Source: a virus. From it: a stretch of 38,834 nt of DNA. The notes under the pieces were generated by a model. The model ran no database searches, was not told where the DNA came from, and saw only the letters and a program-made list of their open reading frames with translations. This document shows, in pieces, positions 977 to 2,306 of this stretch (within the stretch, counting starts at the first letter, position 1; each line of letters opens with the position of its first letter). The position numbers were made by a program, and so were the translations under genes. The stretch lies in IMG/VR virus record IMGVR_UViG_3300045988_143259, one strand, 5' to 3'.

Positions 977-1771
977 TCAGTCCAGCACCCCCAGACGGCC
1001 CAGCACAACGGCCAGCTCATCCCGCTTGACAGGGCGCTCCGGCTCCTGCCCGTCCACAATGCCTTTCAGCGTGGCTTTTTCCCAATGGCCCTGCTTCCGG
1101 CTCCACTCAGGTTCCGCCACAGCGGCGGCGAACGTCATGGCCTTGGTATACAGTGCGTAGGCCTGCGCCCCCGTCATCTCTGCCAACAACTTGTTGATAT
1201 CCATATCATCATCCTCCTTCTCCGGCCGCTGAATGGTGACCGGTTTTTTCACCACGAAATAGTATTTCACCTGCTGTTTGAACAGCGAATAGTTCCCCTG
1301 CGTCCGCGCCGTCCGGGTGCTGGCAGGATCGTTGATGTAGATGGTATTCCCGGTGATTTTCCACACCAGGACGAAGTGCCCGGAAGACGTCCAAAGCCCA
1401 CGGCCCATGCAGGCGATCACAAGATCACCCTGGTCAACGGCAGCCTTGGCCTGGGCGTGGTACGGGCTGTTGGGCTTGCCGTAGATGCTGGCCCCGTTGA
1501 GCATCTTGCAGGTCAGGCCGAAGCGCTTGGCGGCGGGGGCGAAGTAGCCGTAATAGGTCCCCTGGTGCGGGGCCTTGTAGCCGTGGGCCAGCGCCCAGGC
1601 ACACTCACTCTTCGGCGTGACGGATTTGTCCGCCCAGGTGGCCAGCACCATCGCCATAGCGGTAGGGCCACAGCCGGATTTGCCGATAGTGGTGCTTTCT
1701 CCCTTGGCCGAGTAGCTGATATTCGACCAGCGCTGGTCAGTCTGGAGATAGGAGGTCGGTTGTTTATTCAT
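977..1771 (-). CDS. endolysin, Peptidase_C39-like (papain-fold) cell-wall hydrolase with a C-terminal SLH-like wall-binding segment
   Basis: [15 protein letters not shown] (catalytic Cys context) and SSGHFVLVW (His). The C-terminal [18 protein letters not shown] resembles an SLH repeat. Its position is at the end of the lysis cassette. Confidence 0.85.
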   Translation of the reverse strand: [264 protein letters not shown]

Positions 1772-2306
1772 GCAACACCATCCAATCCTCCGCCAGCATG
1801 TCGGACTGGGAAGCTAGCCAACCAACCTGTCGGCCTCTTGTACCGCAAAAGACCAGCGCATGACTGCCAATGTCACAATGAAAAGCCATTAGAGCCGGAT
1901 CGTCTTCGTGCTGATAGTAGATGTTTTTTCCCAACTCTACCCACTGACCCTTTCCATTCCATCCGGCTCGGGCGATGCGCTCACCCTTCTTGGCAGCCTC
2001 CAGGGCAAGCCCGAAGTTCATGCCGTCGGTGGGCCTATAGGCTCCCTTGAACACCTCCTTGGGGCTCCAGCTCTCGTAGCCGTCCTCATAGCGGACCTTG
2101 TAGCCCTCCTCCACCGCAGCCCCAACAGGTACTGCATCGTGGATGGAGCAGACCTTTCCATTCACGCGGTTTGCAGGTTCGGCCTCAACGATCTTAGTTC
2201 CGATATAGCGGTTCATGTTCATCTTCTCCTTTTCGTAGATGCTTTTCTCTCGCGAGATATTCGCCCAGCGAGGGTCCGTTTGCAGGTAGCTGGTTGGTTT
2301 ATCCAT
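1764..2306 (-). CDS. DUF2829 (Tad2-like) protein with the common N-terminal IGTK...SWSPKEVF domain. The first 28 codons are a duplicated endolysin 5' end, so the functional start is probably ATG 2222 or 2216.
   Basis: [28 protein letters not shown]...[18 protein letters not shown] matches the DUF2829 consensus closely. AAGGAG precedes the internal ATGs at 2222 and 2216. N-terminal [18 protein letters not shown] copies the endolysin [19 protein letters not shown]. Confidence 0.85.
   Translation of the reverse strand: [180 protein letters not shown]

Follow-up and report, generated by a model that had tools for sequence, protein, structure and literature searches.

How does a gene of an anti-defence family come to lie inside the lysis operon of a phage, and why does its reading frame open with the start of the endolysin gene that follows it? 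We examined this question in a viral DNA stretch of 38,834 nucleotides (nt), IMG/VR record IMGVR_UViG_3300045988_143259, which we refer to as the window and whose coordinates are used throughout. An open reading frame (ORF) of 180 amino acids (aa) lies on its minus strand between a putative holin gene and an endolysin gene, and combines a short leader, a linker and a two-domain protein of the Tad2 family (PF11195/DUF2829). We consider it likely that this two-domain cargo entered the genome of a temperate siphophage of uncultured gut Clostridia (Oscillospiraceae-like) at the holin/endolysin junction, through one homologous crossover within the conserved neighbour gene and one illegitimate join, which would have captured the ribosome-binding site and start codon of that gene. 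Read in this way, the locus is a nucleotide-resolution natural example of a phage acquiring anti-defence-family cargo, a finding that extends known biology rather than changing it.

Empty sites and breakpoints of the insertion

Seven IMG/VR contigs from this phage lineage lacked the insert (L007-L010, L012, L015 and L017). In these contigs the holin stop overlaps the endolysin ATG, and the junction is the same as that of the window, GGAGGG-N8-ATGGATAA. The uninterrupted site matches both flanks of the insert: the left flank together with the leader was 93–98% identical to the window, and the endolysin was 97–98% identical from nt 121 on. In the window, it is the ATG of the 180-aa ORF (2306) that shares bases with the holin stop (ATGGATAA), and the stop of the 180-aa ORF in turn overlaps the endolysin ATG (ATGAATAA). 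The GGAGGG upstream of 2306 is identical in the empty-site relatives, where it precedes the endolysin. In the relatives the holin is 90–98% identical and the endolysin always lies directly downstream of it. The original prediction, made from the sequence alone, that the gene was inserted between holin and endolysin is thus borne out by related genomes.

The same prediction held that the ORF repeats the first residues of the endolysin as a recombination scar. We recovered the same count of 15 identical residues out of 18, with one gap. The divergence of the two copies in DNA was also confirmed, with an identity somewhat above the predicted two-thirds: a codon-by-codon count gave 40 identical positions out of 54 aligned nt (74%), with many of the differences synonymous. 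The repeat is not a chance resemblance, because over its first 47 nt the left copy matched the start of the endolysin gene in an insert-free relative (L007) at 98% identity. Furthermore, about 45 clusters of close endolysin homologues (80–95% identical, 263 aa) share the opening sequence of the 180-aa ORF; the start of the endolysin in the window itself was found only in insert carriers, and nt 1–54 of that gene are 72–78% identical to the empty-site alleles, which agrees with the proposal that a diverged endolysin allele arrived with the cassette. We read the upstream copy as the remnant of the resident gene, and the working endolysin as a gene with a foreign 5' end.

The identity between the window endolysin and the empty-site alleles changes in steps along the gene (Table 1), and we therefore place a homologous crossover at roughly nt 55–120. 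On the left side, one relative (L218) carries the lineage allele with GCGAATATCAGC, reading ...TGGGCGAATATCAGC (the 'ANIS' endolysin allele). This allele places the left breakpoint exactly after AATATC, at the end of codon 17 (2256|2255). The imported piece accordingly runs from 2255 to about nt 55–120 of the current endolysin. A 15-mer across the left breakpoint gave about 100 chance matches in the viral contigs, among which only an already known contig was relevant.

Between the scar and the native start of the cargo lies a linker of 39 nt, read in frame as 13 codons. The internal start signals that had been predicted are present: the linker holds AAGGAG at 2231-2226 and an ATG at 2222, and a second ATG (2216, M31) follows it directly, the AAGGAG being 3 nt from the former ATG and 9 nt from the latter. 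A 20-mer search of the linker in viral contigs and blastn of more than 300 loci gave matches only in insert-bearing contigs, and alignment to the regions upstream of the Tad2-like genes of six other contigs (L002, L003, L006, L229, L230 and L244) revealed no homology. Translated in the +1 frame, the linker gives RERKASTKRRR*, whose TGA overlaps the ATG at 2222; from this reading and the ATGA overlap, we would guess that it may be the charged tail of a donor holin.

The window, L011 and L217 have the same cassette (100% identity), whereas the holin and p139 beside it and the distal endolysin reach only 77–94% identity. Since the cassette is identical where its flanks diverge, it seems to move, scar included, between backgrounds by homologous recombination.

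A two-domain Tad2-family protein and its native start

We identified the C-terminal half of the protein as a Tad2-like domain, as the original prediction had proposed. Residues 96–177 matched the Pfam profile PF11195 (E=1.5e-20, 73.9 bits versus a gathering cut-off of 25, profile positions 1–72 out of 73), and the sequence search against the PDB recovered SptTad2 (3.6e-12), ModTad2, HgmTad2/AcrIIA7 and SPO1 Tad2. The AlphaFold2 model, built for the monomer with 67 homologues in the alignment, had a mean predicted local distance difference test score (pLDDT) of 78.8, with residues 91–180 at about 67–92 by 10-residue block. The Tad2 fold consists of an N-terminal helix, an antiparallel beta-sheet and a C-terminal short helix, and the best 24 Foldseek matches of the model in the PDB were all Tad2 structures (probability 1.00, target-normalised TM 0.55–0.76). 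The 85 C-terminal residues thus correspond in sequence and predicted fold to the full-length domain of known Tad2 proteins (SPO1 gp34.65, HgmTad2/AcrIIA7, SptTad2 and ModTad2).

The residues of HgmTad2 that contact gcADPR are W21, N22, L88, S90, T92 and D93 (PMC10680739). These aligned with W116, N117, L164, S166, S168 and D169 of the 180-aa ORF, and the GWNGKG and WLASQxDML motifs to which they belong are conserved here. Five out of the six positions were invariant in the 67 homologues, while position 168 varied between S and A. Members of the family sequester 3'cADPR, His-ADPR, N7-cADPR, cyclic dinucleotides or cUMP/cCMP (PMC12393519; 10.1101/2023.05.01.538930). Based on the family membership and the conserved ligand-contact residues, we regard the protein as most likely a sponge for nucleotide signals. 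By homology it would act as a tetramer, which may sequester a nucleotide signal of Thoeris-, CBASS- or Pycsar-type immunity.

Upstream of this domain, residues 31–95 form a confidently predicted beta-rich domain (pLDDT 85–92), with no match in Pfam and no sequence match in the PDB. This accessory domain of about 65 residues is absent from all solved Tad2 structures, and it differs in this from the known Tad2 proteins, as do the 30-residue chimeric extension and the position in a late lysis operon. Foldseek gave only weak, non-significant similarities of the accessory domain to CarD and Mfd (Tudor-like domains), and we rejected this assignment of its fold. The two-domain architecture is shared with the phrog_872 DUF2829 proteins, for example those of N4-like Escherichia and Klebsiella phages and of Vibrio phages (35–41% identity over residues 28/31–178 by tblastn), whose annotations range from hypothetical and DUF2829 to anti-CRISPR and Tad2-like. 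The phrog_872 profile covers residues 26–178 (profile positions 8–171 out of 172, E=4.9e-43). Those proteins differ from ours in starting at the equivalent of M31 and in their genomic contexts, and none has an endolysin-derived leader.

The accessory domain (YIGTK...) was also found fused to Phage_gp49_66 domains (P0023, P0102, and L036 4254-4745, the latter lying directly after an endolysin). Upstream of Tad2-like genes, too, gp49_66 genes were the most frequent neighbours (8 out of 94), which suggests an unexplained link between the accessory domain, gp49_66 and DUF2829.

We then compared the start of the ORF with those of its homologues, inspecting the best 120 out of 3,866. About 117 of these 120 lacked the leader, and nearly all were about 150 aa long and began at the equivalent of M31. 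In the alignment of 67 homologues, M31 (ATG 2216) coincided with the start methionine in at least 90% of the sequences. Because nearly all homologues begin at this position, and given the span of the phrog_872 match, we take the native product to be a two-domain protein of 150 aa starting at M31. For the same reason, we regard the 30 extra residues as an accidental product of the insertion. Their structure was predicted with low confidence (pLDDT 44–59). The leader was common only to the near-identical contigs L011/L137, L228 and L217 and to one diverged relative (L001, whose protein P0001 is 95% identical); in the homologue survey it was shared only by the cluster of P0001 (182 aa), other long homologues having unrelated N-termini. 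The duplicated segment is thus absent from cargo homologues elsewhere and present only in insert-bearing contigs, in agreement with a recombination scar and not with an ordinary conserved leader.

Proposed acquisition and expression, and alternative explanations

The donor most likely already had the order holin, Tad2-like gene, C39-type endolysin, an arrangement that would explain why part of an endolysin arrived with the cargo. We found this order in two short and unrelated metagenome contigs (L230 and L244), where an r1t-type holin, a Tad2-like gene and a C39-like endolysin follow one another; the L230 endolysin starts with MNKQP. It has also been described in the Sinorhizobium podovirus AP-20-A, with p014 as holin, p015 as Tad2-like and p016 as autolysin (PMC13299392). 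From such a donor, the right-hand crossover would have been homologous, inside the endolysin at about nt 55–120, and the left-hand join illegitimate, connecting codon 17 of the resident gene with a site that lies 39 nt before the start of the Tad2-like gene. What is left of the old endolysin start would be a 51-nt remnant, whose reading frame continues across the linker and on into the cargo gene. This remnant would retain the GGAGGG ribosome-binding site and the ATG that overlaps the holin stop, and hence a coupling to the holin.

No promoter-like site was detected in or near the 180-aa ORF. As the gene has no promoter of its own, it would be transcribed with the late lysis operon. Its translation may start at the captured endolysin start (2306), with a strong Shine-Dalgarno and coupled to the holin stop, giving the 180-aa fusion, or at the native AAGGAG and ATG 2216, giving a form of about 150 aa; either route or both may be used. 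For the endolysin, the nearest Shine-Dalgarno-like sequence is GGAGGA, 14 nt upstream and within the conserved AEDW codons, a poor spacing. To translate the endolysin, ribosomes probably have to re-initiate at ATGAATAA, where its ATG overlaps the Tad2-like stop. We infer this translation scheme, for both genes, from the arrangement of their start and stop signals.

Several points weigh against the proposed acquisition of a sponge gene. A donor was not found in the viral, metagenome and genome collections, which held no cargo homologue above 77% and no match to the linker, and the closest 150-aa homologues (76–77%) sit after the portal gene of other phages, outside lysis cassettes. Only five contigs bear the insert, two of which (L011 and L228) are perhaps the same phage, and only L001 is diverged, a set too small for judging whether the extension is under selection. 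The in-frame join itself could be chance, with an estimate of about 1/3 for the frame multiplied by about 0.5 for the lack of a stop in 13 codons. Regarding the function, T92 of HgmTad2 is replaced by S in this protein and by A in most subfamily members; specificity differs widely among Tad2 homologues, so that the ligand is not predictable here (PMC12393519); and no solved Tad2 structure contains the N-terminal accessory domain. Sponges are also thought to require early expression (10.1101/2023.05.01.538930), and the late-operon position conflicts with this view that they must accumulate early. Against this last objection, the closest homologues likewise sit in late structural operons. The locus thus raises the question of whether a signal sponge can work if it is made only late, together with the lysis proteins.

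The direction of the event could be reversed, with the insert being ancestral and the empty-site phages having lost it by homologous recombination between the two endolysin 5' copies, which are direct repeats (about 51 nt, 74–79% identical) and would in principle allow precise excision. We judge this very improbable: the left copy is a truncated endolysin fragment, so a complete gene must have preceded it, and deletion products should match the right copy of the window at nt 55–120, where the empty-site alleles were only 84–88% identical. Moreover, the empty sites are diverse (about 45 clusters), while the carriers are few and 96–100% identical in the cassette, and the mosaic identities already suggest that the carriers are nested within the empty-site lineages. 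A small but appreciable chance is left for the 30-residue extension being a selected functional addition, such as an interaction tag or a way of dosing the sponge with the holin. Its frame is open in all five insert-bearing contigs, including L001 with six substitutions (two of them non-synonymous) and an in-frame 6-nt insertion, and the strong captured Shine-Dalgarno together with the holin coupling makes translation from 2306 likely. This sample, however, is tiny; the 6-nt indel is a slippage of the ATGAAC repeat that keeps the frame automatically, and the scar may owe its differences to other endolysin alleles, themselves shaped by selection. The low pLDDT of the extension and its absence from about 117 of the best 120 homologues also argue for an accident of the insertion.

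Other alternatives concern what the protein does. That the holin, Tad2-like gene and endolysin order is itself functional, a late sponge being translationally locked to the lysis genes and either neutralising late-firing signalling defences at lysis or sequestering a host second messenger, appears unlikely to us. If it were true, the endolysin-derived leader would have been retained so that the sponge dose tracks holin translation, and by association the DUF4406 gene found in the same slot of sister phages (described below) would be an unrecognised counter-defence or lysis-modulating gene. In a related proposal that we find quite improbable, the protein is a nucleotide binder of Tad2 fold with a lysis-linked role, for example late sequestration of c-di-GMP or c-di-AMP that weakens envelope homeostasis or sets lysis timing. 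The order recurs in the unrelated L230, L244 and AP-20-A, a few other homologues adjoin Holin_LLH, GH25, Amidase_2 or SLT genes, HgmTad2 binds cGG (PMC10680739), and the gene lies in a late operon with putative late expression. Most homologues, however, are in unrelated contexts (portal, gp49_66, replication), with less than about 8% next to lysis genes, and the occupation of the same slot by the unrelated DUF4406 cargo suggests a permissive site, not a functional link. In addition, all the experimentally tested functions of the family are counter-defence (PMC12393519; 10.1101/2023.05.01.538930). An AcrIIA7-type anti-CRISPR in place of a signal sponge is scarcely credible, even though several phage records label two-domain homologues as 'anti-CRISPR protein' and AcrIIA7, a DUF2829 protein, was among the PDB matches. 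HgmTad2/AcrIIA7 has been described as not antagonising SpyCas9 and as a sponge of gcADPR and cyclic dinucleotides (PMC10680739), and the discoverers of Tad2 argue that the family is anti-Thoeris (10.1101/2023.05.01.538930).

The variable slot, the operon and the source phage

The junction between holin and endolysin in this lineage is a recurrent cargo site, in which we found contents other than the Tad2-like gene. Three relatives (L013 3672-3995, L014 and L020) carry there a gene of 107 aa with a DUF4406 domain (E=1.2e-6), and in them the C-terminus of the holin is changed and the endolysin begins differently (MNTRPVSYLQ...); by its position the DUF4406 gene is a possible counter-defence candidate. 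In L218 (2837-3000) the two genes are separated by a 165-bp AT-rich non-coding spacer, which holds an inverted repeat of GGGGGCAC...GTGCCCC type. This contig also has a reverse-transcriptase gene (RVT_1), which lies immediately before the lysis genes. In L031-L035 (e.g. L031 3464-4246) an Amidase_2 catalytic domain replaces the C39-like one and the C-terminal domain of about 80 aa is the same (95% identical), that is, a catalytic-domain swap; this C-terminal domain is common to the window endolysin and the Amidase_2 endolysins of the relatives. The slot, with its Tad2-like gene, DUF4406 gene, spacer and swapped catalytic domain, could be mined for counter-defence candidates.

Across about 90 non-redundant Tad2-like loci, the neighbours were mostly gp49_66, portal, DUF6275 and replication genes. 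As only few were holins or lysins, the lysis cassette is a recurrent minority context for Tad2-like genes.

Late-operon cargo genes ('morons') are known at lysis cassettes, for example stx upstream of S-R-Rz in lambdoid phages. The present gene resembles these in being an accessory gene in or beside the lysis genes and expressed with them, and its gene order is the same as that of p014, p015 and p016 of AP-20-A (PMC13299392). It differs in that empty-site relatives allow the insertion to be retraced to the nucleotide, and in that an in-frame endolysin fragment is fused to the cargo. The Tad2 family, the two-domain architecture (common in databases) and the occasional position next to lysis genes are already known; the cleanly reconstructable insertion event and the in-frame endolysin-derived leader are distinctive here.

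Table 1. Features at the start of the window, in order of transcription, and identity of the window endolysin to the empty-site alleles. Every gene in the first 5 kb is on the minus strand.
Feature	Position	Strand	Remarks
Variable tail-fibre-like protein, 475 aa	3698-5125	-	
93-aa protein	3401-3682	-	
CBM_5_12 protein	2971-3408	-	
Membrane/coiled-coil protein, 139 aa	2500-2919	-	phrog_37604
Putative class II holin, 62 aa	2299-2487	-	Two transmembrane domains; phrog_13256 match
Former endolysin Shine-Dalgarno, GGAGGG	2315-2320	-	8 nt upstream of ATG 2306; now serves the 180-aa ORF
180-aa ORF	1764-2306	-	Scar, linker and two-domain Tad2-like protein
Scar	2256-2306	-	Codons 1-17 of the resident endolysin allele, truncated after AATATC
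Linker, 39 nt	2217-2255	-	13 codons in frame; holds AAGGAG 2231-2226 and ATG 2222
N-terminal accessory beta-rich domain, residues 31-95	2022-2216	-	phrog_872, phrog_32732 and phrog_9467 matches
Tad2-like (DUF2829) domain, residues 96-180 and stop	1764-2021	-	Pfam PF11195
Endolysin, 264 aa	977-1771	-	Peptidase_C39_2-like catalytic domain and C-terminal domain of ~80 aa
Putative imported 5' end of the working endolysin	1652-1771	-	Right-hand crossover between nt ~55 and ~120 of the gene
Sigma-70 region-4-like protein, 64 aa	770-964	-	
Intrinsic terminator-like hairpin, strong	739-769	-	14-bp stem; after the 64-aa gene, closing the operon
Window endolysin vs empty-site alleles	nt 1-54 of the gene		72-78% identity
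Window endolysin vs empty-site alleles	nt 55-120 of the gene		84-88% identity
Window endolysin vs empty-site alleles	nt 121-400 of the gene		97-98% identity

The original prediction had also noted the start-in-stop overlap ATGRATAA at both junctions of the cassette and once further upstream. These coordinates were correct (1764, 2299 and 3401), though the overlap is not specific to the cassette junctions. We counted five occurrences in the window versus 1.4 expected, all on the minus strand, the other two being at 23633 and 23930; three out of the five are stop/start gene overlaps. We therefore rejected the motif as a cassette-boundary signal and regard it as a general gene-overlap motif of this genome. 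The copies near 23.6–23.9 kb are apparently in frame within a 293-aa ORF.

A PADLOC scan of the 180-aa ORF and its neighbours gave nothing meaningful. Blastn of positions 700-5200 against the phage GenBank collection gave only a 108-nt match in a Pseudomonas phage, and the scan of genome contigs recovered no prophage above 72% endolysin identity. The genome-contig matches were metagenome-assembled genomes of Clostridiales, Oscillospiraceae, Ruminococcaceae and Lachnospiraceae, and one contig labelled Mycoplasmatota. The window has an exact 99-nt terminal direct repeat (1-99 and 38736-38834) and looks as though it had been assembled as a circle of about 38.7 kb; its relatives among the contigs measure 45–47 kb and align across its ends.

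Finally, two other genes in this part of the window differed from their neighbours in conservation. The 64-aa sigma-70 region-4-like gene was 98–100% conserved in all the relatives, far above its neighbours. The 475-aa tail-fibre-like protein was about 97% identical in L011/L217 and only 35–41% identical in other close relatives, a divergence that looks like a receptor-binding module swap beside otherwise conserved genes.

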